Positions 25,962-63,322 of a stretch of DNA of 64,000 nt are shown in pieces (position 1 is the stretch's first letter; every line of letters begins with the position of its first letter). Position numbers and translations under genes: made by a program. The stretch lies in the sequence record PP261279.1; one strand, given 5' to 3'. The notes under the pieces were generated by a model. The model made no database searches and was not told the origin of the DNA. It saw only the letters and a list, made by a program, of their open reading frames with translations. The DNA comes from Escherichia phage ECP2303.

Positions 25962-26063
25962 AAGCTTTACCCCTCAAAACAGTATAACAAAATAGCCCTC
26001 GTGTCAGAGGGCTAGTATCTCCGATTACTCTATTCTACCACATCTAATTAAGATTGGCAACAC

Positions 26064-27611
26064 TTAGATAAAACGCTTGAACATAGAAGGTGATGAGATT
26101 GATGGAATCACACAAGGCAGCGCTACCTCCTCTTTCTCTAGGAAATTAATCGCAGAAGCTACACAGTCGGCCCAGTCGTCTTTTCTGTTAAATGTTGATC
26201 TTTCCCCGTTGAACTTTTCAAGTTCAGTCAGAAATGCTTCCAGAGTGTCAGGATGGAAACTGGATTTTACAATCCTCACCATTCCTTGTTGGGCAAGATT
26301 GGCAAAAGGTGAGAACCTTGTCAGTTTAGATTTGTTGGAAGGCATTGGATCTTCTTCAACCCTGAACCCTTCGGCGAGCAAGGATCTGGATGAGGTTAAG
26401 AACTCACTCTTACCTGCCTGGCCGGGGTCCACAGAAAATACGATTATGCAATCATCTCCATCAAACTGTGCCTGTTTCCTGATGATCACATCTCGTTCCC
26501 CAGCCTTTTTACAGAACTTGCCTTCCAGACCTGTGGAATACCTACCGTCATCCACGTTCTCAGGACAATAATCTCCGGACAGGTAATAAAAGCCGTCGCT
26601 ATCTTTACTTACCTTAACACTGGCGGTAAAGTCAGGAAATTTATTACCGGAAGTTCTCTCGGTCCCTGCCTTATCCCATGCCCTGCAAGATACTGATCCA
26701 AGAGGTACTCTATCGGCATCCCGAAGGAAAGATCTTTGGAAATAGTTTGCACCCTCAGGTTTGGCAAACCAGTTGCCATGAAGAAGCTGGGCTTTTTCAA
26801 GCTCTGGCAGACCTTCAAGGAAAGCAAGGTATTCTGGGTTGTCTCTCAAGCAGACAGGATTATCGAAAATTGTTGCGCCTATAAACGAGAATGACAACGG
26901 TCTTGGCTTGATCTCCACACCCAGTCCGTTAACCGTGGTGTATTTCTCTATTAACTCTTCTTTAGAGTCTCCCCAAATAAATTCACCGTCGCGTCGGATA
27001 AAATATCTTTTCTTACCACATTTCTCCGGATCTGGATACCCTTCATCGTCCAACCACCACCTAACCAGTTTGGCAAGCATGTGTTCTGAGTCGGGGTTAC
27101 AGCTGATAACCATTCTTGATGGATACTTTGACTGAGATCGCAGACGAGACATCAAATAGTCTATCTGCTCCCATTCGAATTGCGTGCCTTCATCGAAGCA
27201 AACCATGGTGTACTCAAGGCCTTGATGGTTAAGCTTATCTTGGACATACTCCATGTGGCAGTATTTTACAACGGCCCCCTTTTTGCTCCTATCCCACTTG
27301 CCAGTGCTCGGATCAAACCGTGGAAAAATAAACTTATGATCCTTCTCTCTGAACTTTGGTTTAATGTTTTCAGGCAGATCACTGTAAATAGCTACTGCTT
27401 TAGGCCATAGCCCACCCTCACCTTCCAACTGGGGAGTTGTTCTTCGGAACATAACCACAGAGCTGTGCGGGTCATCAATAATTTTAAGCGGCATTAGCTG
27501 CAAGAGGAACGACTTGCCAGACCCAGCTGCACCTCCGATCACCAAAATATCTGCATCGTTCTCTAGGATCATCTTCTGCTTTTCAGAACACGGTCCGTAA
27601 ATCTTAGACAT
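26064..27611 (-). CDS. terminase large subunit
   Basis: Walker A GGAAGSGKS, Walker B-like VCFDEG, C-terminal nuclease-domain acidic motifs (SVDPGQ); 515 aa. Confidence 0.85.
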   Translation of the reverse strand: MSKIYGPCSEKQKMILENDADILVIGGAAGSGKSFLLQLMPLKIIDDPHSSVVMFRRTTPQLEGEGGLWPKAVAIYSDLPENIKPKFREKDHKFIFPRFDPSTGKWDRSKKGAVVKYCHMEYVQDKLNHQGLEYTMVCFDEGTQFEWEQIDYLMSRLRSQSKYPSRMVISCNPDSEHMLAKLVRWWLDDEGYPDPEKCGKKRYFIRRDGEFIWGDSKEELIEKYTTVNGLGVEIKPRPLSFSFIGATIFDNPVCLRDNPEYLAFLEGLPELEKAQLLHGNWFAKPEGANYFQRSFLRDADRVPLGSVSCRAWDKAGTERTSGNKFPDFTASVKVSKDSDGFYYLSGDYCPENVDDGRYSTGLEGKFCKKAGERDVIIRKQAQFDGDDCIIVFSVDPGQAGKSEFLTSSRSLLAEGFRVEEDPMPSNKSKLTRFSPFANLAQQGMVRIVKSSFHPDTLEAFLTELEKFNGERSTFNRKDDWADCVASAINFLEKEEVALPCVIPSISSPSMFKRFI

Positions 27612-27898
27612 TAACCTCTCTCCTTTGGAAACAGTGTTCTTATATAGTCTTGCAAAATGATCAATTTAGCTCTATCATTACTACAAGACAGGTTATTATC
27701 CCTCATAATGCCAGAATTCACCGCATCTGGCGCACCTTTCTTCAAAGGGATAGCTTTAGCAGGTGGTTTCATAGCACCCTCGGGAGGTTTAACAATCAAC
27801 CTTCCTACATTCGGAGGGTCAATCTTGTATTCTCTCTCAACGCTGGTTGCACACCCACACAATAACAAGCACAAAACAACCAGTGCAGTAACTCTCAT
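27611..27898 (-). CDS. o-spanin (Rz1-like outer-membrane lipoprotein)
   Basis: 95 aa; signal peptide with Cys cluster (LLCGC), proline-rich mature part; start overlaps the i-spanin stop. Confidence 0.55.
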   Translation of the reverse strand: MRVTALVVLCLLLCGCATSVEREYKIDPPNVGRLIVKPPEGAMKPPAKAIPLKKGAPDAVNSGIMRDNNLSCSNDRAKLIILQDYIRTLFPKERG

Positions 27899-28293
27899 CG
27901 AACCTCCTGATTGATACTCTCATTATAAATATCTATTAGCTGATCAGGAAGTGTTGACTTCTTACCTTCAGGAGATTGGAGGTAGATAATCTGCTTTTCT
28001 TTACCTGCCTTCTCAGCCATATTTAATTTATCCTGTAGATCAGAAAGAGATTTTTCAAGGTTTTTAACCTCCTCTGCGTGGCCCATTTTAATTTTGTCGG
28101 CCTGCTTTTGTTGTTGGTCAAGGATCCGTTCCCACTTTAACTCTGTTGCTGACACACCTTCTTGATAAGCATCATTGAGCTTAGAGTTAAACCAATACAC
28201 GGCCCCAAGATAAGCCATGCCTATAGCCGCTGCAAAAACTAAACCTTTTATGATCCCTCTGTGTTTACTCATCAATGTTAAAACTGAAATCAT
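27895..28293 (-). CDS. i-spanin (Rz-like)
   Basis: 132 aa; N-terminal transmembrane helix then charged coiled coil; immediately followed by the lipoprotein gene. Confidence 0.55.
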   Translation of the reverse strand: MISVLTLMSKHRGIIKGLVFAAAIGMAYLGAVYWFNSKLNDAYQEGVSATELKWERILDQQQKQADKIKMGHAEEVKNLEKSLSDLQDKLNMAEKAGKEKQIIYLQSPEGKKSTLPDQLIDIYNESINQEVR

Positions 28294-28310
28294 TTTTAAG
28301 GCTCCAGAAA

Positions 28311-28345
28311 CGAAAAAACCCCGCAGCTATACAGCTAACGGGGCG
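28311..28345 (-). terminator. Rho-independent terminator at the early/late boundary
   Basis: Minus-strand GC-rich hairpin (CCCCG...AGCU-guau-AGCU...CGGGG) followed by UUUUUU. Confidence 0.55.
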
Positions 28346-28399
28346 GGTTAAAATTGAGTAACCTAAATAGATCGAAACTAACTAAAAGGAGACTAATAC

Positions 28400-28669
28400 T
28401 TATCGAGGCACTCGGTGGATGATTCTGACAGTAACCGCATTCTCATTCATCAAGTAAGCATCCACATCTCTGTAAATATAAAACTTCTGCTCGCTATCAA
28501 CAACACAAGCTACTGCCCCTTCAGAGTTGTCTTCAAAGAAGACCACAACTGCATCGCAGCTTAGTTCATGATACGACTCTCGAAGATTTACAGCAAGAGG
28601 GTTGAAATCGTCACGAAGATCTAAAGTATGGGTTGGATTTACACGTTCTACAATTTTAAGTGTATACAT
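28400..28669 (-). CDS. hypothetical protein
   Basis: 89-aa ORF downstream of the tRNA cluster with AAGGAA RBS. Confidence 0.4.
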   Translation of the reverse strand: MYTLKIVERVNPTHTLDLRDDFNPLAVNLRESYHELSCDAVVVFFEDNSEGAVACVVDSEQKFYIYRDVDAYLMNENAVTVRIIHRVPR

Positions 28670-28715
28670 TTTAAAGGTTCCTTTTGTGTGTATATATTTA
28701 AAGTATAACTAAAGG

Positions 28716-28792
28716 TGGTCTCCACGGAGTGATTCGAACACTCGACCTCCTGATCCCAAATCAGGCGCTCTACCAAGCTGAGCTACGCGGAG
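28716..28792 (-). tRNA. tRNA-Pro (anticodon UGG)
   Basis: Hand-folded cloverleaf: acceptor with C1-G72, D-arm GCTCAGCTTGGTAGAGC, anticodon loop UUUGGGA, T-arm GAGTG-TTCGAAT-CACTC, CCA encoded. Confidence 0.7.
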
Positions 28793-28803
28793 TATTTATT
28801 ATT

Positions 28804-28878
28804 TGGTGGCCCTGGGTGGAATTGAACCACCGTCTGGCGATTATGAGTCGCTTGCTTGAACCTTCCAGCTACAGGGCC
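28804..28878 (-). tRNA. tRNA-Met (anticodon CAU; initiator-like loop CUCAUAA)
   Basis: Acceptor GGCCCTG/CAGGGCC, anticodon loop CUCAUAA, T-arm GGTGG-TTCAATT-CCACC, CCA encoded; could alternatively be a lysidine-modified Ile tRNA. Confidence 0.6.
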
Positions 28879-28879
28879 A

Positions 28880-28955
28880 TGGTGCTGATGGCAGGACTTG
28901 AACCTGCAACCTATTGATTACAAATCAATTGCACTGACAATTGTGCTACATCAGC
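28880..28955 (-). tRNA. tRNA-Thr (anticodon UGU)
   Basis: Acceptor GCTGATG/CATCAGC, D-stem GCAC/GTGC, anticodon stem ATTGA/TCAAT with loop UUUGUAA, T-arm GCAGG-TTCAAGT-CCTGC, CCA encoded; 1-nt spacer from tRNA-Met. Confidence 0.7.
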
Positions 28956-28959
28956 AAAA

Positions 28960-29058
28960 GGTGCTAGGTGATGGAATCGAACCACCTATGTATTCAACGA
29001 CTACCTCGTCTATTTTCAGGATTAAAAATCCTCGCCCTTGCCAAAGGGCTTACCTAGC
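28960..29058 (-). tRNA. atypical tRNA-like gene (99 nt; Lys-type UUUUUAA anticodon loop; ~30-nt insertion before the T-arm)
   Basis: Perfect 7-bp acceptor (GCTAGGT/ACCTAGC), D-arm GCCC-TTTGGCAA-GGGC, 4-bp anticodon stem AGGA/TCCT with loop UUUUUAA, extra hairpin ACGA-GGTAG-TCGT, T-arm GGTGG-TTCGATT-CCATC; too long for a canonical type I tRNA and not folding as a standard type II. Confidence 0.35.
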
Positions 29059-29156
29059 GCAATATGTTGACCATGTGGCTAGTCGGCGATGACGACTGTA
29101 ACATTTGATAATCCGGTTCTGCTTCCGGCTTTCGCTTAATTACAAGGTCAACAATG

Positions 29157-29247
29157 TGGCGGAGAGTAATGGAATCGAACCATCATCGAGTTATCCTCAA
29201 CGGGACGGTTTTCAAGACCGCTTGAGCACCATTGCTCCCTACCCTCC
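29157..29247 (-). tRNA. tRNA-Ser (anticodon UGA), type II
   Basis: Anticodon arm GCGGT-CUUGAAA-ACCGT nearly identical to E. coli tRNA-Ser(UGA); long variable arm; T-arm GATGG-TTCGATT-CCATT; CCA encoded; 91 nt. Confidence 0.7.
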
Positions 29248-29361
29248 TTTATAAATTACACTGATAATGACACTGATTTTCGAGCAGTTAGTGACTAGTA
29301 TAAACGACGATAAATATCAATGTCATTATCTGTATGATTTATGCATTTAAAAATATAAATT

Positions 29362-29448
29362 TGGTGGGGAGTGGTGGAGTCGAACCACCCGAGTCGCAAT
29401 GACAATAGATTTACAGTCTACACCGCTACCTCTACGGGATAACTCCCC
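29362..29448 (-). tRNA. tRNA-Tyr (anticodon GUA), type II
   Basis: Anticodon arm GTAGA-CUGUAAA-TCTAT and variable region TGTCATTGCGACTCG resemble E. coli tRNA-Tyr; T-arm GGTGG-TTCGACT-CCACC; CCA encoded; 87 nt. Confidence 0.65.
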
Positions 29449-29452
29449 AATT

Positions 29453-29527
29453 TGGCACCCCGTACTGGACTCGAACCAGTGTCAACGGCTTAGAAGGCCG
29501 CTGCTTTATCCACTAAGCTAACAGGGC
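29453..29527 (-). tRNA. tRNA-Arg (anticodon UCU)
   Basis: Acceptor GCCCTGT/ACGGGGT (two G-U pairs), D-stem GCTT/AAGC, anticodon stem GCGGC/GCCGT with loop CUUCUAA, T-arm ACTGG-TTCGAGT-CCAGT, CCA encoded. Confidence 0.65.
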
Positions 29528-29585
29528 ACTGGGTGGCTTTCTTTTACACCTGAGCCGCCAGAAAAGGTGGGAGACCATGTTTATA

Positions 29586-29614
29586 ATATTACACTGTTAG
29601 GCAAAGTTTGTCAA
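29586..29614 (-). promoter_or_regulatory. sigma70-type promoter for the tRNA cluster
   Basis: Minus-strand TTGACA (29609-29614), 17-nt spacer, TAATAT (29586-29591) preceded by TG; about 55 nt upstream of tRNA-Arg. Confidence 0.5.
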
Positions 29615-29623
29615 GAAAATATT

Positions 29624-29962
29624 TTAACTATTGCCAACAGGCTGTATTTCTGTGGTAAATGGCATAAAAGGTGCTGGTTTTTCAGCCTCTTCTACTACCA
29701 CCTCTTCCTCTTCACCAAACATCTCATCATATTCTTCCTGCATTCGGTCTGCCTTATCAAGAACATACTCTGCAATGCTTTGACGAATATTTTGTTTGGT
29801 TTTCGGGTCCAACATCAGCTCTCTTAAAACTTTGTGAGCTTCTGGAACCATCGCTATAAAAGATTCCTTCATATCAAGGATGTTCTTCTCTAGCTGAATG
29901 GCGTTGGACTCCTCTTTCAGAGGTCTGCCTCTACGGCGACGCTTTTTAGTTGTATCCGCCAT
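29624..29962 (-). CDS. small basic/acidic protein with AT-hook-like KKRRRRGRP motif
   Basis: Start assigned to ATG at 29962 (GGAGGAAAC RBS), 112 aa; N-terminal Arg/Lys cluster with GRP core, C-terminal acidic tail; the longer track ORF (to 30082) would overlap the promoter. Confidence 0.45.
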   Translation of the reverse strand: MADTTKKRRRRGRPLKEESNAIQLEKNILDMKESFIAMVPEAHKVLRELMLDPKTKQNIRQSIAEYVLDKADRMQEEYDEMFGEEEEVVVEEAEKPAPFMPFTTEIQPVGNS

Positions 29963-29990
29963 GTTTCCTCCATTATCACGTGATAGGTGG

Positions 29991-30019
29991 ATTTTATCAC
30001 GGCAAATACTGATTGTCAA
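29991..30019 (-). promoter_or_regulatory. sigma70-type promoter
   Basis: Minus-strand TTGACA (30014-30019), 17-nt spacer, TAAAAT (29991-29996); a 7-bp-stem hairpin (30026-30046) abuts the -35. Confidence 0.45.
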
Positions 30020-34471: not shown

Positions 34472-34818
34472 AGAAGTTGATTGTGTGGCTGGATGACTTG
34501 AGAGATCCGTCAAATTATGGGCTCCCAGATGCTCTTTGGCTAAAGAATTCCTCTGAGTTTATGGATTTTATTAACGATAAGGGAAAGCTCTACAGGCGCG
34601 TTTCTGAGTGGCACATGGACAACGACCTTGGAGAGGTATTTGAAGGGTACGATTGCCTATCTATGCTGGAGGAAAAATTTGTATTTGGTAAGCCTCCTGT
34701 AGTTGACAACGTGAAGATTTTCGTGCATACTTCTAACCCATCAGCTGCTCGTAAATTCATGCTTGCTGCTGACTCGTTTAAAAAGTTTGGAATAGAGATT
34801 AAACAAAACATCTACTGA
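34468..34818 (+). CDS. hypothetical protein
   Basis: 116-aa ORF coupled between RNA ligase and Sir2-like genes; no motif recognised. Confidence 0.4.
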   Translation: MKKLIVWLDDLRDPSNYGLPDALWLKNSSEFMDFINDKGKLYRRVSEWHMDNDLGEVFEGYDCLSMLEEKFVFGKPPVVDNVKIFVHTSNPSAARKFMLAADSFKKFGIEIKQNIY

Positions 34819-34826
34819 GGACACTT

Positions 34827-35588
34827 ATGCGACGACTGATCATTATCTCCGGTGCTGGTTTGAGCGCTGAATCTGGTATCCCAACTTTCCGATCTGGTGG
34901 CACTGCAATGTGGGAGAATTTCAGCATCGATGAGGTGTGTAACATCCACACCTTTGCCAAGAACTACTATAAGGTTCATGACTTTTACAATGCACGGCGT
35001 GTAGCTCTTGGCAGTGTTGATCCTAACCTTGCACATCTCCGGATCGCTGAGTGGTATTCCCGCTGGTCTGGTCGTGTGATCAACCTGACCACCAATGTAG
35101 ATGATTTGCTGGAGCGTGCTGGTGTAAAACATGAAGATATTTTACATGTCCACGGATATTTGCCAGAAATAGTCTACAAGGATGATGAAGGGAGTAACGT
35201 CATTAAAGACATTGGATACTCTGAGGTAGATGCAAGCAAGTATACTTGGGTTAAGCCTAATGTAGTGTTCTTCGGAGAAGTAGCTCCAAAGTATACAGAC
35301 ATGTATGACCTGTTGACTTCTCTGACGAGCAATGATATGGTTATCCTTGTAGGGTGCTCCAACACAGTTATCAATTTTAACTGGGAGCTATTCCCTGCCT
35401 GTAATAAGGGGACCAAACTGCTGATCGTTAACAAATACGACTCACAGCATTTAGGGGAGAATGGCATTTCACGTAGTGACATTTACCAGTATGAGGATCG
35501 CGGCATCCCAGTTTGGTTTAACGGGGCTGTTGACGCTTTCTCTGATAAAACATTCATTGACATCGTAGAAAACTTTATGGAACTGTAA
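34827..35588 (+). CDS. Sir2-family (sirtuin-like) NAD-dependent protein, lacking the zinc ribbon
   Basis: GAGLSAESGIPTFR, TTNVDDLLERAG, catalytic-type HG (LHVHGYL), VVFFGE, LVGCS; no CxxC...CxxC zinc motif. Confidence 0.8.
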   Translation: MRRLIIISGAGLSAESGIPTFRSGGTAMWENFSIDEVCNIHTFAKNYYKVHDFYNARRVALGSVDPNLAHLRIAEWYSRWSGRVINLTTNVDDLLERAGVKHEDILHVHGYLPEIVYKDDEGSNVIKDIGYSEVDASKYTWVKPNVVFFGEVAPKYTDMYDLLTSLTSNDMVILVGCSNTVINFNWELFPACNKGTKLLIVNKYDSQHLGENGISRSDIYQYEDRGIPVWFNGAVDAFSDKTFIDIVENFMEL

Positions 35589-38228: not shown

Positions 38229-38352
38229 TGTAGGAAGGTTTAGTAGGTAACGGTAGCCAATTGAATGATGGTTTTTCAATTGGCACCTGCATAACCACAT
38301 TATGCAGTGTTGTTGATCGGGTTAGTTATGAGTAAATTGGAGAGTATGAAAA

Positions 38353-38823
38353 ATGAAACTTGATAAAAATGTTCAACGAAAAGCTTTCTTGGATATGATC
38401 GCATATTCAGAAGGTACAGATAACGGTAGACAACCTACCAAGGATCGGGGCTATGATGTCATAGTCGGTGGCAAGCTGTTTAGCGATTACAGCAAGCATC
38501 CGGGTGTGTACGTTAAGCTAAATGCTAAACTTACCTCCTCTGCTGCGGGGCGCTACCAAGTTTTGGAGAAGTTTGCTAAACACTATATGAAACAGTTAGG
38601 ATTACCAGATTTTGGCCCTGCCAGTCAGGATAAGATCGCACTACAATTGATCCGTGAGTGCAAGGCGCTCGATGATATTGATGAAGGTCGTATTCATCAG
38701 GCCATCCATCTTTGCAGATCCCGATGGGCAAGCCTTCCTGGTGCAGGGTATGGTCAGCACGAACAGAAGATCGAAAAGTTGATCGAGGTGTTTAAAAAGT
38801 CAGGCGGTGTTGTCCTAGATTAA
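38353..38823 (+). CDS. R: endolysin, lambda R-type lytic transglycosylase
   Basis: NVQRKAFLDMIAYSEGTDNGRQPTKDRGYDVIVGG...AGRYQ...WASLPGAGYGQHEQK is near-identical in pattern to lambda R. Confidence 0.9.
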   Translation: MKLDKNVQRKAFLDMIAYSEGTDNGRQPTKDRGYDVIVGGKLFSDYSKHPGVYVKLNAKLTSSAAGRYQVLEKFAKHYMKQLGLPDFGPASQDKIALQLIRECKALDDIDEGRIHQAIHLCRSRWASLPGAGYGQHEQKIEKLIEVFKKSGGVVLD

Positions 38824-38826
38824 TCA

Positions 38827-38855
38827 TTGACATGACCACATGGATGTGGTATTGT
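38827..38855 (+). promoter_or_regulatory. sigma70-type promoter with palindrome in the spacer
   Basis: TTGACA, 17-nt spacer containing CCACATGGATGTGG, then TATTGT. Confidence 0.4.
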
Positions 38856-38886: not shown

Positions 38887-39093
38887 ATGAAAGATTTTCT
38901 GTTGGCAATTTTATTCATGGCAGCATGCTTTGCCTGTGGTGTCGTGTTTGCAGGTGAAACAGCGTATCTTGTAGATGTATATCGGGACAATGGTAAACGT
39001 ATTTGCCTTTATGAAACAAGCCAAGGTGAGCTCTACGAGCTTGTGAAACAAGGCGAGGCTGGATCTTGTCCTCGGACTCACTTCTTCGAATAA
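38887..39093 (+). CDS. small secreted/lipoprotein-like protein
   Basis: 68 aa; hydrophobic N-terminus with Cys cluster (MAACFACG); AAGGAG RBS; adjacent to endolysin. Confidence 0.4.
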   Translation: MKDFLLAILFMAACFACGVVFAGETAYLVDVYRDNGKRICLYETSQGELYELVKQGEAGSCPRTHFFE

Positions 39094-52644: not shown

Positions 52645-54761
52645 AAGTTGTAAAACGGGACGGTAGAGAAGAGTTTTATAACGGAATTAAGGTGATCAAG
52701 GCGGCAGAGTCCGCCTTACTTGAGTCTGGACATACTGAAGAAGAAGCTTACCGGATTGCCTGTGCGGTTAATGAAGTTGTTGCCAACAATCTGCCAACCG
52801 ACCAGTGCACGATCTCTGTAAAAAATATCCATATCCTTGTTGAAGATGCTCTTATGGATATGGGTTTAAAATGTGCAGCCAGAGAATACATCCAGTATAG
52901 ACAGACAAGAGATAATAACAGAGAGGCAGGTGGAAAACTGCTTGCAGATATTAGTGGCTTCTTGGATCGTACTTGTGATGAATTTACAAAAGAAAACGCA
53001 AATAAGCCTACTAATCATGTACACACTCATCGTGACCTGCTTGCAGGTATCCTTAGCAAACACCTTGCATCAACACAGATCCTGCCAGATCGTGTCTCAG
53101 AAGAGCACAACAAGGGCTTCATCCATGTGCATGATCTTGACTACTTGATCAGCCCGTTAACAAACTGTTGTTTGGTGAATTATCCGGATATGCTGGAAAA
53201 CGGATTCAACATTGGCAACGCCCATGTCAGTAAGCCGAAGTCAATAGGGGTTGCAACAACAATCCTTAGCCAAATCTCTAGTGCAGTAGCTAGTGCTCAA
53301 TATGGCGGTCAGACCATGAGCCATATTGATCATTATCTGGCACAGTATGCTGAAGCAACCTATGAGAAGAACCTTAAATTTTGTCAGGAACATTGGTTGC
53401 CAGATGCTGAGACTGTTGCAATGCAAATGACAGATAAAGACGTGTTTGATAGTATGCAAACTTTGCTCTACCAAATCAATACGTTAACTTCTGTCAACGG
53501 GCAAACTCCATTCATCACACTAAGTTTAGGGCTGGATACCTCGGTCTTTGGTAGAATGATTACCAAAAACTACTTGAAAGTTCACAAAATGGGTCTCGGT
53601 GAAGAACGGATCACACCTGTGTTCCCTAAAGTGCTGTTCTTCTTAGAGGAGGGTGTCAACATGAACCCTGGGGATCCTAACTATGATTTGAAACGATTGG
53701 CATTAGAATGCTCTGCAGAGCGGATTTATCCTGACTTTGTTTCTGTTCCGCTAAATCGTAAAGTGACAGGTTCAACAGACGGCAAAGTAACAAGCATGGG
53801 ATGTAGGTCGTTCCTTGGAAAATACGTTACACCGGAGGGTGATGAAAAATACCTTGGCAGATTCAACTTGGGTGTTGTTAGCCTTAACCTACCAATGATT
53901 GCGGCAAAAGCTAAGACGGAAGGTATTGATTTCTTTGCAGTTCTTGACGAATACTTGGATCTTGCATACGAGGCTCACCTTGTAAGGGTTAACCGTCTAA
54001 AAGGAACAAAGGCAGGGCAGAACCCTATCATGTGGTGTGAAGGAGCTCTTGCTCGCCTGGATCCTGAAGAGAGTATCGATAAACTCTTCTATGACGGGTA
54101 CGCTTCCATCAGTATTGGGTATATTGGTGTGTATGAAACCTGTCAGATTTTGGGTAGAGAGGGTGACAAGGCTTTAGCTCTTGAAATCCTTCAGCACATG
54201 AGAGATGCTTGTGAGCGATACAAGAAGGAAAGTAGACTAGCATTTAGCTTGTACGGCACTCCTTCTGAGAGTCTATGCTATAAAGCTGCAACCTGTCTGG
54301 ATCGTGAATATCCGGAAGTGTTGAAGCACGAGCATGAATATCTCACCAACAGTTTCCATCAGCCAGTATGGATAAATAGCTCCCCTTTTGATAAGTGGGA
54401 GTATGAGGAAGGTTTTGCTATGATCTCCTCCGGTGGCAACATCGGATACGTAGAGACACCTAACCTGAAAAACAACCTGGATGCTTTAGAGGCTCTTGTT
54501 GACTTCGGGTATAAACATATTATGTATTTTGGTATTAACCAACCTGTGGATAAATGTCTCAAGTGTGGTTTCTCTGGTGAGTTCAGTGCAACAGCTAAAG
54601 GCTTTGTATGCCCAGAGTGTGGAAACCATGAAGAGGGAACGATCAGTGTAATTCGACGTGTGTCTGGATACCTTTCCAGTCCTAACTCCCGTCCTTACAA
54701 TAAAGGTAAGCAAGCGGAAGTTATCGAGCGAGTTAAGCACTATGGAAGTTGTAGTTGCTGA
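52641..54761 (+). CDS. nrdD: anaerobic ribonucleotide reductase (class III)
   Basis: C-terminal CLKCGFSGE...CPECG zinc site and glycyl-radical motif RVSGYL; 706 aa. Confidence 0.9.
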   Translation: MKVVKRDGREEFYNGIKVIKAAESALLESGHTEEEAYRIACAVNEVVANNLPTDQCTISVKNIHILVEDALMDMGLKCAAREYIQYRQTRDNNREAGGKLLADISGFLDRTCDEFTKENANKPTNHVHTHRDLLAGILSKHLASTQILPDRVSEEHNKGFIHVHDLDYLISPLTNCCLVNYPDMLENGFNIGNAHVSKPKSIGVATTILSQISSAVASAQYGGQTMSHIDHYLAQYAEATYEKNLKFCQEHWLPDAETVAMQMTDKDVFDSMQTLLYQINTLTSVNGQTPFITLSLGLDTSVFGRMITKNYLKVHKMGLGEERITPVFPKVLFFLEEGVNMNPGDPNYDLKRLALECSAERIYPDFVSVPLNRKVTGSTDGKVTSMGCRSFLGKYVTPEGDEKYLGRFNLGVVSLNLPMIAAKAKTEGIDFFAVLDEYLDLAYEAHLVRVNRLKGTKAGQNPIMWCEGALARLDPEESIDKLFYDGYASISIGYIGVYETCQILGREGDKALALEILQHMRDACERYKKESRLAFSLYGTPSESLCYKAATCLDREYPEVLKHEHEYLTNSFHQPVWINSSPFDKWEYEEGFAMISSGGNIGYVETPNLKNNLDALEALVDFGYKHIMYFGINQPVDKCLKCGFSGEFSATAKGFVCPECGNHEEGTISVIRRVSGYLSSPNSRPYNKGKQAEVIERVKHYGSCSC

Positions 54762-54824: not shown

Positions 54825-54941
54825 ATGTCTAAAGGTATTTATAAAATTTGCAAGTGTGGTTGTCGTTGTAATCTTCGGTGGTGCAAGGCATTAGACGATT
54901 TTATTTGGCATTGCCCTAAATGCGATGCGGAGTACTTATAA
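54825..54941 (+). CDS. small Cys-rich zinc-ribbon protein (38 aa)
   Basis: ATG with strong RBS TAGGAGGT; CKCGCRC...CPKCD pattern; below the ORF-track size cutoff. Confidence 0.4.
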   Translation: MSKGIYKICKCGCRCNLRWCKALDDFIWHCPKCDAEYL

Positions 54942-55092
54942 GCATAAGGGGTCGAAATGCGGAAATCTATCAAGAAAATCAAGATAAAATTGTTAGCACT
55001 GAAGCGTAAGTATAAAAAGTTATACGGCTTCATCAAATGGACTTTTATAGGTTTATCTTGAATAGAAGCACACCACAGAAGAGAGGTTCCTT

Positions 55093-55329
55093 ATGATAGG
55101 TGTCTGTGTAAAAGCTAACAGATGGTTTACATTCGGTAAGGATTACGAAATTATCTTTCATTCGGACAGAGCCACAACAGTAGAAAGCGATGATGGGTGC
55201 CACTGGTTCGTTAGTTACCATGGTGATGGGTATTATAGATCTACTGATTCCAGAGGGGAAGAAGCTGTTTTCTTGGATAGAGCTTATTGTGGGCCTGAAT
55301 ATCCTTACCTAAAAGAGGATAAGGAATGA
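55093..55329 (+). CDS. hypothetical protein
   Basis: 78-aa ORF with AGAGAGG RBS, coupled to nrdG. Confidence 0.4.
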   Translation: MIGVCVKANRWFTFGKDYEIIFHSDRATTVESDDGCHWFVSYHGDGYYRSTDSRGEEAVFLDRAYCGPEYPYLKEDKE

Positions 55330-60481: not shown

Positions 60482-61011
60482 CAGGTATGCTTCTGATTAA
60501 CTGGGAAGACCTCTATGGGGACAAAGACCCTGTTGCGTTTGTTGATCGTAGGTGGAGATACACTGAAGAACAACTGGCGGCAAAAAATTTAACTGCAAAA
60601 CGCAGAAAGATCATCCAGTGCAAGTACAAATACGCACAGTTTGCTGCAAAAGTGTCTCCACAAATCGAGAGCTTTGTGCTTAAATTGTATGACGAGTACC
60701 TCAAATTCAAATTGGATTTTGTGCAGGTGTACCGTGCACAGGTACGACCAGATACCAACATATGTAGATGGAAGGTTGTTTGTGAAGGTAAAGATTTGCC
60801 GCTCAGCTTGACAATTGAGTGGCGTTATGGGTATCATGAGTGTGGTCTGTATGATATTTGGGATGTCATTGTAGATCCTGCTAAGCATCTGAACACAGAG
60901 GAGCTGGAATATATCAATAAGGTTATTCTCGATATGTTTTTCAGCTACACACATGAAAACTCTGAGAAAGAACGGGATAATTTTCTTGACACCCTCAGCG
61001 ACCATTTGTAG
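60478..61011 (+). CDS. hypothetical protein
   Basis: 177-aa ORF. Confidence 0.4.
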   Translation: MTGMLLINWEDLYGDKDPVAFVDRRWRYTEEQLAAKNLTAKRRKIIQCKYKYAQFAAKVSPQIESFVLKLYDEYLKFKLDFVQVYRAQVRPDTNICRWKVVCEGKDLPLSLTIEWRYGYHECGLYDIWDVIVDPAKHLNTEELEYINKVILDMFFSYTHENSEKERDNFLDTLSDHL

Positions 61012-61041
61012 TATACAATTTAACCTACAAAGGGAGGACCA

Positions 61042-61269
61042 ATGAGTATAAATGTTGTGCTAATAGGTTACCTGGTAATGTCCGTTATAACAGCGGTATT
61101 CTTGACAGGTGTATGCATCGTGTCCAGACGAAGGGTGAAGTTTGATGATTTTATCACCATCATCACTGCTGCACCTTTTTGGCCTGTTGTTATCTTCATC
61201 GTAATAATGTGCCTAGTTGATTACTACAAGAATATCAGGAAGGAGAGTAGGGATGGAGACCGCACCTAA
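61042..61269 (+). CDS. small membrane protein (two predicted transmembrane helices)
   Basis: 75 aa, two hydrophobic stretches and a charged C-terminus; GGGAGG RBS. Confidence 0.45.
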   Translation: MSINVVLIGYLVMSVITAVFLTGVCIVSRRRVKFDDFITIITAAPFWPVVIFIVIMCLVDYYKNIRKESRDGDRT

Positions 61270-61382
61270 AACTATCTATACTGTTCTTAAAGAGATTGCG
61301 TTCTACGCAGATCTTAGCCAGGCACCTTTATGGGAAAAGAGCATGTATTTAAAATGGTGCGTTAATTTAGGGAGACCTTCCA

Positions 61383-61502
61383 GTGTTTCAAGCCATGTTT
61401 ATTGAGATGCTATCTGGGATATTGTTACTGGTAGCCATCTTAGGTGGTGCAGTTCTGATGTATAACTATCTTGAAAAAGGAGACAGCAATGGTAAAAAAT
61501 AA
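61383..61502 (+). CDS. small membrane peptide (39 aa)
   Basis: GTG start 6 nt after GGGAGA; single hydrophobic helix (LSGILLLVAILGGAVLM). Confidence 0.3.
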   Translation: MFQAMFIEMLSGILLLVAILGGAVLMYNYLEKGDSNGKK

Positions 61503-61674
61503 ATCTTTAGAGCAGGCTGAAAACCTTCTCCACGAGCTGGTAAAGGAGTGGAAAGTTGAATACTCAGATTTTAATGCACGAGAGGGTGAAGATTATTGGC
61601 CTACGGAGCGCTCAGAGGGCGAATGGTATCAAGATTTTATAGAGTGGTTATATCAGACGTGCGATGAGGGGTGA
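61489..61674 (+). CDS. hypothetical acidic protein
   Basis: Start at ATG 61489 with AAGGAG RBS (track start 61471). Confidence 0.4.
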   Translation: MVKNKSLEQAENLLHELVKEWKVEYSDFNAREGEDYWPTERSEGEWYQDFIEWLYQTCDEG

Positions 61675-62141
61675 CGATGTTTGTTAAATATGTAAAAACG
61701 TGCCTCAACAGTCTTGGCAGAGAGCATTGGTACACCTTGCTTGAAAAAGGGGAAATTTTAACAAAATCTGGAAAGATAACTTTGATACCTCTTGATAGTA
61801 AAGGTAAAGACCCGTCACGACTTGTTATAGATGATTACGTTACAGGTGTGACGTTCGAGGTCTCTGTGGAGAGGTTAATACGCAGAGCTGGCGGCCCTTA
61901 TGACCGAAGAGAGTATGTTTTCGATTCCGTTACAGAGATGGGGGAGCATCCGTCTTTAATGTTCAGGATGGTAATCAGAGATATGAGGTCATCTATAGAT
62001 AGGATCGTAAAGGACATTAAGGAACCTTTTAGAGTAAAAGTTAAGAAGTTTTTCGATTCTAAGATTAACATACTCGCCGTTGCACTAGGTGTAGTTCAAC
62101 TTCTGTTAATTTTGCACTATTTTGAACTACTATTTAAGTAG
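61671..62141 (+). CDS. hypothetical protein with C-terminal transmembrane anchor
   Basis: 156 aa, hydrophobic C-terminus (ILAVALGVVQLLLILHYF). Confidence 0.4.
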   Translation: MTMFVKYVKTCLNSLGREHWYTLLEKGEILTKSGKITLIPLDSKGKDPSRLVIDDYVTGVTFEVSVERLIRRAGGPYDRREYVFDSVTEMGEHPSLMFRMVIRDMRSSIDRIVKDIKEPFRVKVKKFFDSKINILAVALGVVQLLLILHYFELLFK

Positions 62142-62203
62142 TAGTTGAGATATGGCACAAAGGATGTGCCATAGTGAAATAAACTAAGAAAGAGGTAGAG
62201 AGA

Positions 62204-62551
62204 ATGCCAAAGATTAAAACGTTATTACTGTGGGTAGCTGTTTTAGCTTTTATAGGGTACTGGACTTGGGAAACTGAATTAAAAGATATCGGATATACCA
62301 GTCTTGAGAGCAAGGCGTGCATTGGCATAACCGATGCGTTCAGGCAAAATGCTATGGATCACGAATGTGTTGATGCAGATATAGATGAGAAACTGTCTAA
62401 GGACAAAGATTTTTACCATGGGTATGCTTTACTTGATAGTGGTGACACTGTAGAGTTCTGGTCGTGGTTTCGTGAAGATGGAACAATAAAAACAGCAGTA
62501 AAGATCTCTAACAAAGAGTTAATGCTGTTGCAGCAAAAGGAGGCTCAATGA
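62204..62551 (+). CDS. hypothetical secreted/membrane-anchored protein
   Basis: 115 aa, N-terminal signal-anchor-like helix; AGAGG RBS. Confidence 0.4.
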   Translation: MPKIKTLLLWVAVLAFIGYWTWETELKDIGYTSLESKACIGITDAFRQNAMDHECVDADIDEKLSKDKDFYHGYALLDSGDTVEFWSWFREDGTIKTAVKISNKELMLLQQKEAQ

Positions 62552-62835
62552 TCTGGATATCCTATGCTGATGGCACCATGCTGTATACTGCAGGTACCAG
62601 ATATGAAGTTCAGGAGAACGATAAAAAATTTATCGTAAAAACATTTGACAAGGACGACAACCTTTTGCTAGAATTGACTTACAAAGTTGGAGAGGTATCC
62701 AATATCCAGTTGGATTGTGGTCATAAAGATAATCCACTCAAAAAACCTGGAGTAGGTAAGGCTTCAGAAGAACGTCTGTCTCGTATTGCAGAAAGCGTTT
62801 CTCCCCAAAAATCTAAGAAGAGGACTAGAAAATGA
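62548..62835 (+). CDS. hypothetical protein
   Basis: 95-aa ORF. Confidence 0.35.
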   Translation: MIWISYADGTMLYTAGTRYEVQENDKKFIVKTFDKDDNLLLELTYKVGEVSNIQLDCGHKDNPLKKPGVGKASEERLSRIAESVSPQKSKKRTRK

Positions 62836-63026
62836 AAAACTTACGTTTTAACACTTATTACTACAACACATTGAATGATTTGTATTATATTGTTCGAAGT
62901 AAAAGTCCTGAAACAGTCCTATTCTGCCGCGAACCTTTCAAAGGGGAGGAAGTAGAGTCTGAGATGAATGTTAGCCAGATCACCTCTTTGTTGCTCTCAG
63001 GCGCAATGGAAGAAGCAATATTCTAA
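62832..63026 (+). CDS. hypothetical protein
   Basis: 64-aa ORF. Confidence 0.3.
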   Translation: MKNLRFNTYYYNTLNDLYYIVRSKSPETVLFCREPFKGEEVESEMNVSQITSLLLSGAMEEAIF

Positions 63027-63044
63027 ACCAGGCAGGAGGGTTTT

Positions 63045-63230
63045 ATGAAGCACTATTGCCTGTCTGGTAGAATGGGTGCAGATTGTGATTGGGTTTTCTT
63101 AAAACTTGTCAGCATTCGAGAGTTCATCCCAGAGGAAGAGCAAGAAAGCGAGCTGATGTCATGGATCAACCATTACGGTAACACTTTTCGGCATGTTAAG
63201 GTAGAAGAGTTGCCAAGCGAGGCTGATTGA
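63045..63230 (+). CDS. hypothetical protein
   Basis: 61-aa ORF with AGGAGGG RBS. Confidence 0.35.
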   Translation: MKHYCLSGRMGADCDWVFLKLVSIREFIPEEEQESELMSWINHYGNTFRHVKVEELPSEAD

Positions 63231-63232
63231 CT

Positions 63233-63322
63233 ATGATTGCATCAATATTAACGTTTATAGGTGGCGTGGCATTCGGATTCATTGTTTGCCTGTTTATAGT
63301 GATTATGTCTATGCGAGGCTGA
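63233..63322 (+). CDS. small hydrophobic peptide (29 aa)
   Basis: ATG 2 nt after the upstream stop; single predicted transmembrane helix. Confidence 0.25.
   Translation: MIASILTFIGGVAFGFIVCLFIVIMSMRG

Follow-up and report, generated by a model that had tools for sequence, protein, structure and literature searches.

Apart from those of rV5 and its relatives, the lysis systems that come closest to the one described here are those of phages T4, lambda and Mu. In T4 the lysis genes (e, t, the spanin genes pseT.3/pseT.2, and rI/rIII) are spread over the large genome of this myovirus, and the spanins are of the 'separated' type, the stop of one gene overlapping the start of the next (PMC7344957, PMC6139136). 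The lambda S-R-Rz/Rz1 genes form a clustered cassette in which the o-spanin gene is embedded; a soluble, holin-dependent endolysin is combined there with a two-component spanin. Lysis without a holin exists in phage Mu, which encodes a SAR (signal-anchor-release) endolysin (gp22), the releasin gp25 (DUF2730) and the spanins gp23/23.1. For rV5 and its relatives, the rV5 spanin family has been catalogued as a 'separated' two-component spanin (Kongari et al. 2018, PMC6139136), and the position of the spanins beside the large terminase gene has been remarked for rV5, PVP-SE1 and CB7 (PMC7344957). The rV5 protein ORF129 was named a 'putative holin' in 2013 (Kropinski et al.); the holin was reported as not identified in LL12, Gotham and KPP-1, and only distant two-segment candidates were given for BME3. 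The scattered lysis-gene layout of rV5-like phages and the absence of a holin call are already published and are nothing new.

The window analysed in this work is the whole stretch of 64,000 nucleotides from Escherichia phage ECP2303 (PP261279.1). Positions 64461-128460 of phage ECP2309 (PP464953.1), which is classed in the genus Vequintavirus and is rV5-like, differ from the window by 2 mismatches in 64,000 bases (99.997 % identity); the window belongs to the genome of an rV5-like phage of E. coli. Gene content and gene order are the same as in the Vequintavirus phages rV5 (NC_011041), ECP2309, LL12 and FV3 and the BASEL isolates. The i-spanin, o-spanin, terL and lysozyme genes of rV5-like genomes are annotated identically to those of the window, with no substantive difference, and the GenBank annotation of PP464953.1 already names I-spanin, O-spanin and lysozyme. 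The terL gene is uninterrupted in the window, whereas it carries introns or homing-endonuclease inserts in rV5, LL12 and ECP26; the ORF129 allele encodes 75 aa in the window and 78 aa in rV5.

The preferred reading, to which a probability of about 85 % is given, is an ordinary three-step lysis of a phage of Gram-negative hosts, with unlinked genes as in T4, a layout that is on record for rV5-like phages. The soluble lambda R-type endolysin would accumulate in the cytoplasm and would reach the cell wall only through large holes made in the inner membrane by a holin. The i-spanin would be anchored in the inner membrane and the o-spanin lipoprotein in the outer membrane; their genes overlap and share a late-strand run with the terminase gene. 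Judged by homology to spanins of the Rz/Rz1 type, the two proteins would form a complex that spans the periplasm and breaks the outer membrane after degradation of the wall. The holin would be encoded away from the spanin and endolysin loci, and sequence alone cannot assign it. The original prediction had described the lysis genes of this DNA as dispersed, and every feature that it listed was found at its coordinates.

The spanin genes and terL lie in one run on the minus strand. The i-spanin gene (27895-28293, 132 aa) matched phrog_4297 'Rz-like spanin' over its full length (E=1.4e-48; I-spanin in PP464953.1), and the o-spanin gene (27611-27898, 95 aa) matched phrog_1267, also 'Rz-like spanin' (E=4.3e-22; O-spanin in PP464953.1); both family matches are far better than chance. 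The gene for the large terminase subunit, terL (26064-27611, 515 aa), was assigned from phrog_979 (E=1.7e-208), the annotation and the junction sequence. On the reverse-strand sequence, the i-spanin stop and the o-spanin start overlap in ATGA, and the o-spanin stop and the terL start overlap by one base in TAATG. The spanins thus abut terL, which is a difference from T4, and the o-spanin gene is separate, as opposed to the embedded gene of lambda.

By hydropathy analysis the i-spanin has a single transmembrane segment close to its N-terminus (about residues 13-35) with K10 and R12 ahead of it, as in an N-in, C-out protein. An AlphaFold2 single-sequence model of moderate confidence (mean pLDDT 72.8) contained one helix at 2-99, a low-confidence, Pro-containing linker at 104-112 and a second helix at 115-131; the model suggests a periplasmic part made of two helical (coiled-coil) stretches and a linker, as in spanins. 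The i-spanin lacks any cysteine, unlike lambda Rz, so that lambda-style covalent dimerisation cannot apply. The o-spanin carries the lipobox LLCGC with Cys16, which fits a PROSITE-type lipobox pattern in a regular-expression search; its +2 residue is Ala, so there is no inner-membrane retention Asp at this position. The mature part comprises 80 aa, with 9 Pro (11 %) and one more Cys (C72), as compared with about 40 aa in lambda Rz1. Homologs of the o-spanin were found in 191 phage records from several Vequintavirinae genera. The assignment of 27895-28293 and 27611-27898 as an i-spanin/o-spanin pair of the published rV5 spanin family is supported by these sequence features, and the claim of a spanin pair directly upstream of the terminase stands on ORF positions, family matches, lipobox, transmembrane segment and gene overlaps. 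In the papers found, no spanin or holin of any Vequintavirus had been tested by genetics or complementation.

The endolysin gene (38353-38823, plus strand) encodes a lambda R-type lytic transglycosylase of 156 aa, whereas T4 uses the E muramidase. The protein matched lambda lysozyme (PDB 1AM7/3D3D, E=3e-56; residues 4-154 in the case of 1AM7) and the endolysin family phrog_90 (E=5e-55), and its motif AYSEGT was aligned to AWSEGT of lambda. LysECP26, which is near-identical to this endolysin, has been purified and is lytic; it shares 62 % identity with lambda R and conserves the catalytic Glu (PMC9728275). Hydropathy over 17 residues reaches no more than 0.48, and the protein starts with a charged stretch (MKLDKNVQRK), without a signal or SAR segment; as judged from these features, a soluble endolysin without an export signal should need a holin. 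The endolysin family (about 62 % identity), the holin-dependent soluble endolysin class and the two-component spanin are shared with lambda, whereas the lysis genes of ECP2303 are not clustered. The distance from the i-spanin start to the endolysin is 10,060 bases, on opposite strands; with the 1AM7 match, this measurement agrees with the earlier placement of a lambda R-type endolysin about 10 kb off on the opposite strand.

Several observations on expression bear on the preferred reading. The neighbourhood of the endolysin gene consists of DNA-metabolism genes on the strand opposite to the structural genes, which counts against the three-step model. Two hairpins (38256-38284 and 38287-38307) are present upstream of the endolysin; an RNA hairpin over its ribosome-binding site, as in T4 gene e, was considered and rejected, the fold being not significant (z=-1.5) and the site not clearly sequestered. 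On the minus strand, a terminator-like hairpin of 11 pairs followed by U6 (28312-28344; fold -21.1 kcal/mol, z=-1.84) ends about 20 nt before the i-spanin ATG, and a promoter scan of 28294-28400 gave no promoter-like site between the hairpin and the i-spanin. A hairpin in this position with no later promoter-like site is a point against the preferred reading, as it touches the mode and time of transcription of the spanin-terL run. The published rV5 'late' motif TGGTAAAATA was found in four perfect copies, each 15-52 nt upstream of late-strand genes, and amounts to the extended -10 of sigma-70-type promoters (TTGnnn, ~14 nt, TGnTAAAAT). No copy with one mismatch or fewer was found just upstream of the endolysin, i-spanin or 61042 gene, so that the motif cannot sort the candidates by timing. 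Transcriptome, transcription-timing or genetic-screen studies for Vequintavirus were not found in the literature.

A holin gene was found next to neither the spanins nor the endolysin. When the flanks of both loci were scanned for small membrane proteins, a 68-aa ORF beside the endolysin was the only one seen, in keeping with the original prediction. Searches of Pfam, PHROGs and NCBIfam gave no match to a holin, antiholin or releasin family for any sizeable membrane-protein candidate inside or outside the window; no holin candidate scanned matched Phage_holin_T of T4 or any other Pfam family, and none matched an S-like holin of lambda. The earlier statement that the holin of this phage lacks an assignment accords with these searches and with the literature. 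The candidates proposed at that time were also recovered by hydropathy, with two strong segments in 61042-61269 and one each in 61383-61502 and 63227/63233-63322, all on the plus strand.

One account of the missing step, which can be held only tentatively, is that of Kropinski et al. (2013): the holin would be the 75-aa protein encoded at 61042-61269, a class II holin whose gene is 22 kb away from that of the endolysin. This protein, the ortholog of rV5 ORF129 (rv5_gp124), has transmembrane segments at residues 5-21 and 43-59 (hydropathy 2.63 and 2.56) and the tail DYYKNIRKESRDGDRT, in which 8 of the last 15 residues are charged; size, two strongly hydrophobic segments and charged C-terminus are those of a class II holin, and 61042-61269 is the only classical-looking holin candidate within the window. 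In the 2013 study, ORF129 was the sole rV5 protein given two segments by both TMHMM and Phobius. Its gene is the first of a five-gene run (61042-62141) in which starts and stops overlap or nearly abut. Within these coordinates lies the gene for a peptide of 35-39 aa with one transmembrane segment (61383-61502; phrog_15251, a family without a function name), which corresponds to rV5 ORF131, a 'membrane protein' in rV5 Table S3. The run ends with the ortholog of rV5 ORF133 (61677-62141, plus strand), a 154-aa protein with a C-terminal transmembrane segment that is annotated as, and matched phrog_7821, 'virion structural protein' (E=1.3e-70); such an end suggests that expression of the run continues late. 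The ORF133-type protein has homologs in Mydovirus-like Klebsiella phages, in one of which a non-homologous 70-aa protein with two segments is encoded three genes upstream of the ORF133 homolog and is followed by a gene that is ORF132-like by eye. ORF129 showed no homology to this syntenic 70-aa protein (hhalign probability 0.15 %).

Against this assignment, the 75-aa protein matched no holin family in Pfam, NCBIfam or PHROGs (phrog_10061 bears no function name), is called 'hypothetical protein' throughout the databases and is confined to the genus. A sigma-70-type promoter-like site with a consensus -35 (TTGACA-17-TAGTAT, 60986-61014, plus strand) lies 28 nt upstream of the gene, amid DNA-metabolism genes and small genes of unnamed function, and late expression is said to mark all confirmed holins. 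The loop (RRR.K) leaves the topology ambiguous. The window protein has an identity of 92 % to rV5 ORF129 and of 53 % to its FV3 counterpart, the loop and the second segment being invariant; alleles that are 53-100 % identical in a genus otherwise at about 95 % would also fit a superinfection-exclusion protein such as T4 Imm. The annotation of LL12 by a group specialised in lysis accepted no holin. Two further plus-strand ORFs with hydrophobic segments lie downstream: a protein of 115 aa that by hydropathy begins with a signal or anchor segment and that has an acidic, Cys-containing domain (62204-62551; phrog_11867, without a function name), and a hydrophobic peptide of 29-31 aa with one hydrophobic segment (63227/63233-63322), which is absent from the annotation of PP464953.1.

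A second account, likewise possible but doubtful, seeks the lysis timer in the late tail-fibre module, beyond the window, as an ORF29-type protein of 88 aa, an ORF31-type protein of 104 aa, or both. These families are at least as plausible as holin candidates as 61042-61269. In PP464953.1 the rV5 ORF29 type (phrog_1322) is encoded at 53428-53694 and the rV5 ORF31 type (phrog_5345), with a single membrane segment at the N-terminus plus a coiled coil, at 54839-55153, both on the late strand among structural genes. The location recalls that of the T4 holin gene t, which follows the tail-fibre gene 38. Homologs of ORF31 occur across Vequintavirinae genera, and those of ORF29 also in Stephanstirmvirinae and Aeromonas phages; the two genes lie on either side of that of a five-segment membrane protein in Seunavirus and Certrevirus and so form a three-gene membrane cluster. 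Among ORF29 homologs the two-helix core is invariant and the C-terminal tail is variable and highly charged. The ORF31 protein, N-out/C-in and about 100 aa long, shares its architecture with the Mu releasin gp25, namely an N-out membrane segment followed by a cytoplasmic coiled coil.

The likeness of ORF31 to gp25 is architectural only, however: hhalign gave a probability of 2.8 % for homology to DUF2730, and three homologs had no PF10805 match at E<=10, whereas Mu gp25 itself matched PF10805 at 2.5e-13. The helices of ORF29 are of low hydrophobicity (maximum 1.27), this protein is given no transmembrane domain in rV5 Table S3, and its structure model is of low confidence (pLDDT 59.8). The only name that an ORF29 homolog bears in a large protein database, 'DUF2644' on one metagenomic protein, was not reproduced by a Pfam scan. 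Searches of Pfam, PHROGs and NCBIfam placed neither protein in a holin family. Both genes are always found beside baseplate or tail-fibre genes, in distant phages as well, and homologs are called 'structural protein' in some records; a role in assembly or in the virion fits equally. The wider form of this account, that the ORF29/ORF31 pair may be the true lysis timer of rV5-like phages and of Vequintavirinae and Stephanstirmvirinae at large, the ORF129 cluster serving another purpose, is to be regarded with somewhat more reserve still.

A Mu-like, holin-independent lysis is unlikely. It would have wall degradation begun by a second, SleB-like cell-wall hydrolase, secreted or tethered to the membrane, with the help of a releasin-like ORF31, with the lambda R-type enzyme escaping secondarily. 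The SleB-like gene, which lies outside the window (PP464953.1 34495-34995; Pfam Hydrolase_2, E=2e-19), encodes a signal-bearing protein, so that an rV5-like genome contains a signal-bearing hydrolase as Mu does; its N-terminal hydrophobic segment is kept in other Vequintavirinae and in Phapecoctavirus, and two 'endolysins' have been remarked by other authors in PVP-SE1 and BME3. The segment is, however, strongly hydrophobic with a VVA/AP cleavage-type site, and thus resembles an ordinary signal peptide and not a weakly hydrophobic SAR segment. The gene stands beside rIIA/rIIB, homologs of the T4 genes of these names, among genes of early or middle type. SleB-like homologs without a signal are found in T5-like phages, and the enzyme characterised as the T5 endolysin is of another kind, namely an L-alanyl-D-glutamate peptidase (PMC7344957). 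In comparison with Mu, moreover, DUF2730 homology is not detectable, ORF31 not being a member of that family, and the main endolysin is soluble.

The 68-aa gene beside the endolysin (38887-39093, plus strand) is predicted from an N-terminal hydrophobic segment to encode an exported or membrane protein, and matched phrog_4641, a family without a function name. The original prediction had called it a small lipoprotein-like gene; the small gene and its hydrophobic N-terminus are as described, whereas the lipoprotein call is uncertain. Only a relaxed lipobox is present (FMAAC, with Cys14 and Met at -3), the canonical [LVI][ASTVI][GAS]C not being matched; VFA/GE is a plausible alternative signal-peptidase I site, and there are two more Cys. 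The protein is nearly confined to Vequintavirus and is 'putative membrane protein' in several records. That it is the holin or a lysis regulator is the least probable of the readings, and a very improbable one: in its favour are the adjoining endolysin, the Ala-, Gly- and Cys-rich hydrophobic segment and the very high conservation within the genus (94-100 % identity), but this one segment is signal- or lipoprotein-signal-like and is followed by an acidic, Cys-containing domain with no charged cytoplasmic tail, the gene is preceded by a sigma-70-type promoter-like site of its own (TTGACA-17-TATTGT with TG, 38827-38855, plus strand, between the endolysin stop and the gene), no lysis family was matched in PHROGs, Pfam or NCBIfam, and a lipoprotein that blocks the receptor, such as T5 Llp, would fit the protein just as well.

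The three-step reading with unlinked genes restates a known gap as to the protein that times lysis in these phages, and does not close it. Added here are a short ranked list of candidates (ORF129 in the window, ORF29 and ORF31 outside it) and the flagging of a second exported hydrolase. If the late-module account were true, ORF29/ORF31 would constitute a holin family not described before, a releasin-like partner, or both, placed like T4 gene t, and the hypervariable ORF129 cluster (61042-62141) would then have another purpose, for example superinfection exclusion. Identification of the holin would leave the general view of phage lysis unchanged unless the late-module or holin-less alternatives are true. 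Phages of the rV5 type find wide use against pathogens, E. coli O157 among them, and an antimicrobial is being developed from their endolysin; to identify the holin would improve the annotation of several hundred related genomes.

The scattered lysis genes and missing holin of rV5-type phages are already known and form their standard published description. The original prediction of this layout was borne out, but it had been published before, including its lead holin candidate at 61042-61269. Kongari et al. 2018 (PMC6139136) catalogued rV5 among the families of two-component spanins of the 'separated' type. In rV5, PVP-SE1 and CB7 the spanin pair adjoins the large terminase gene, outside any lysis cassette, and this placement hampers the finding of holins (Buttimer et al. 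2020, PMC7344957). A holin gap was likewise reported for Gotham and KPP-1, and distant two-segment proteins are the only holin candidates of BME3. Kropinski et al. 2013 described rV5 gp129 (78 aa, two transmembrane domains, basic C-terminus; gene at 94058-94294 in their Table S3) as a putative holin lying apart from the lysin 'as in phage T4'. The gp129 gene is rv5_gp124/'ORF 129' in NC_011041 and shares 92% identity with window 61042-61269. A literature search found no genetic test of lysis genes in the rV5-like group.

A megablast search with positions 26000-30000 gave a 100% identity match to Escherichia phage ECP2309 (PP464953.1; Vequintavirus, rV5-like), whose record already labels the matched features 'terminase large subunit', 'I-spanin' and 'O-spanin'. 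The ECP2309 genome was reassembled from four stretches, and PP464953.1 64461-128460 equals the window with only two mismatches. Some 16-21 GenBank 'Campylobacter phage' records (MG0656xx, host Campylobacter jejuni) encode proteins 87-100% identical to those of E. coli rV5-like phages; this likeness suggests mis-assigned hosts or contamination of the data set with E. coli phage.

The spanin pair claimed directly upstream of the terminase was confirmed by the ORF list, which places the i-spanin (132 aa) at 27895-28293, the o-spanin (95 aa) at 27611-27898 and the large terminase (terL; 515 aa) at 26064-27611, all on the minus strand. Both spanins matched 'Rz-like spanin' families (i-spanin: phrog_4297, E=1.4e-48; o-spanin: phrog_1267, E=4.3e-22). 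The i-spanin has a single N-terminal hydrophobic segment (residues ~13-35) and was modelled as two helices, a long one (2-99) and a second (115-131), joined by a low-confidence linker that contains Pro (AlphaFold2, single sequence, pLDDT 72.8). The o-spanin carries the lipobox LLCGC (Cys16, Ala at +2), and its mature form has 80 aa with nine prolines and one extra cysteine. Stop and start codons overlap at both junctions: ATGA joins the i-spanin to the o-spanin gene, and TAATG joins the o-spanin gene to terL. Homologues of the o-spanin were found in 191 phage records, comprising Vequintavirus, Seunavirus (PVP-SE1), Mydovirus-like Klebsiella phages and Erwinia phages. The terL gene is unbroken in the window (515 aa) and intron-split in rV5 and LL12; a homing endonuclease is reported within the rV5 gene, and terL matches to relatives such as ECP26 fall into several pieces.

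A strong terminator-like hairpin with U6 (28312-28344, -) ends ~20 nt ahead of the i-spanin ATG, and no promoter-like site was detected between the two. Expression of the spanins and terL may therefore rest on transcripts that start upstream of the tRNA cluster and read through the hairpin. This cluster (28716-29527, -) holds seven tRNA-like genes between the i-spanin operon and the upstream genes: Pro, Met, Thr, Ser, Tyr, Arg and a 99-nt element (28960-29058), called 'tRNA-???' with a 4-base anticodon by ARAGORN, which may represent a tRNA that is degenerate or contains an intron.

The endolysin (38353-38823, +) matched the lambda lysozyme structures 1AM7 and 3D3D over residues 4-154 (E=3e-56) with its catalytic-Glu motif aligned, and its distance from the spanins and its opposite strand were as described. 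Its N-terminus is not hydrophobic. The near-identical homologue LysECP26 was purified and found active (PMC9728275). As a soluble, lambda R-like enzyme it should need a hole-forming holin. By homology, the holin would open holes through which the endolysin reaches the wall, and the spanin pair would then disrupt the outer membrane. Dispersed lysis genes are likewise found in T4, and rIIA/rIIB homologues are also present in ECP2309. The small lipoprotein-like gene proposed beside the endolysin exists (38887-39093, +; 68 aa) and has a hydrophobic N-terminus; its product looks, from its sequence, like an exported peptide or a weak lipoprotein. Two adjacent hairpins (38256-38307, +), the second flagged terminator-like by the scan, lie between the DNA ligase and endolysin genes, and a sigma-70-type promoter-like site (TTGACA-17-TATTGT; 38827-38855, +) lies between the endolysin and 68-aa genes and gives the 68-aa gene a promoter-like site of its own. 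The endolysin gene may lie at the tail of the ligase transcript and be poorly expressed.

A second wall hydrolase, SleB-like (Pfam Hydrolase_2, E=2e-19), is encoded outside the window at record 34495-34995 (-; PP464953.1), immediately upstream of rIIA, and is labelled 'endolysin' in GenBank. Its strongly hydrophobic N-terminal signal is conserved with the enzyme in other Vequintavirinae and Phapecoctavirus; SleB-like homologues in T5-like phages have no signal, and the characterised endolysin of those phages is a different enzyme. Two 'endolysins' were noted by other authors in PVP-SE1 and BME3.

Across the genome, TGGTAAAATA, published as the 'late' motif of rV5, has four perfect copies, each 15-52 nt upstream of a late-strand gene (for example at window 2161, 16301 and 19822, -). 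In its context the motif is not a T4-like late promoter but a sigma-70-type extended -10, and a TTGnnn -35 box stands ~14 nt upstream of it. When up to one mismatch was allowed, still no copy closely preceded the spanins, the endolysin or the 61042 gene, so the motif cannot time these candidates; no transcriptome for the genus Vequintavirus was found in the literature.

Small proteins with hydrophobic segments were scanned on the coding strands of the whole genome and compared with Pfam, PHROGs and NCBIfam. None of the candidates matched a holin family, in agreement with the original prediction, which left the lysis timer unassigned. The ORF129 ortholog (61042-61269, +; 75 aa) is one tentative holin. 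Its two strong transmembrane segments are followed by a charged tail. The gene lies behind a consensus -35 sigma-70-type site (60986-61014) and heads five genes with overlapping or almost touching starts and stops (61042-62141); the last of these is the rV5 ORF133 ortholog, whose annotation is that of a virion structural protein. The topology of the protein is ambiguous because the loop carries RRR.K. ORF129 was found in the genus Vequintavirus only and is unusually variable, with loop and second segment invariant: between isolates ORF129 is 53-100% and ORF133 ~80-100% identical, compared with 94-100% for the 68-, 88- and 104-aa genes. Superinfection exclusion or host interaction would likewise be in keeping with such variability. 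A Mydovirus-like Klebsiella phage encodes a non-homologous 70-aa two-segment protein three genes upstream of its ORF133 homologue. Small membrane proteins are densely clustered at 61042-63322 (+): 75 aa, two-segment; 35-39 aa; 154 aa, tail-anchored annotated virion protein; 115 aa, signal-anchored; and a 29-31-aa peptide.

The late-strand tail-fibre module is another, equally tentative, source of the holin or timer. The T4 holin gene t also comes after tail-fibre gene 38. The module (PP464953.1 53428-55153, -; corresponding loci L006 7001-8070 and L007 7001-8078) lies outside the window and encodes ORF29 (88 aa; phrog_1322 'membrane protein'; record 53428-53694, -) and ORF31 (104 aa; phrog_5345; record 54839-55153, -), the latter with an N-out membrane segment and coiled coil. 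ORF29 is conserved in Vequintavirinae and Stephanstirmvirinae as well as in some Aeromonas phages; its two-helix core is invariant, and its C-terminal tail is highly charged and differs between homologues. ORF31 is conserved across Vequintavirinae. In Seunavirus and Certrevirus their homologues flank a five-segment membrane protein (152-157 aa). However, the helices of ORF29 show weak hydrophobicity and the model of its structure is of low confidence, and both genes stay beside baseplate/fibre genes even in distant phages, so an assembly or virion role fits equally. Homology of ORF31 to the Mu releasin family DUF2730 was undetectable. A timer in this module belonging to a new holin or releasin-like family is given a probability of about 0.25. 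Late expression is, according to a Mu lysis study, a trait of every confirmed holin. A holin-less, Mu-like route is very unlikely here. The remainder of the estimate beyond ORF129, the late module and this route was left without a candidate. To the published description of rV5-type lysis is added a ranked list of holin candidates that includes late-strand genes beyond the view of the original prediction.
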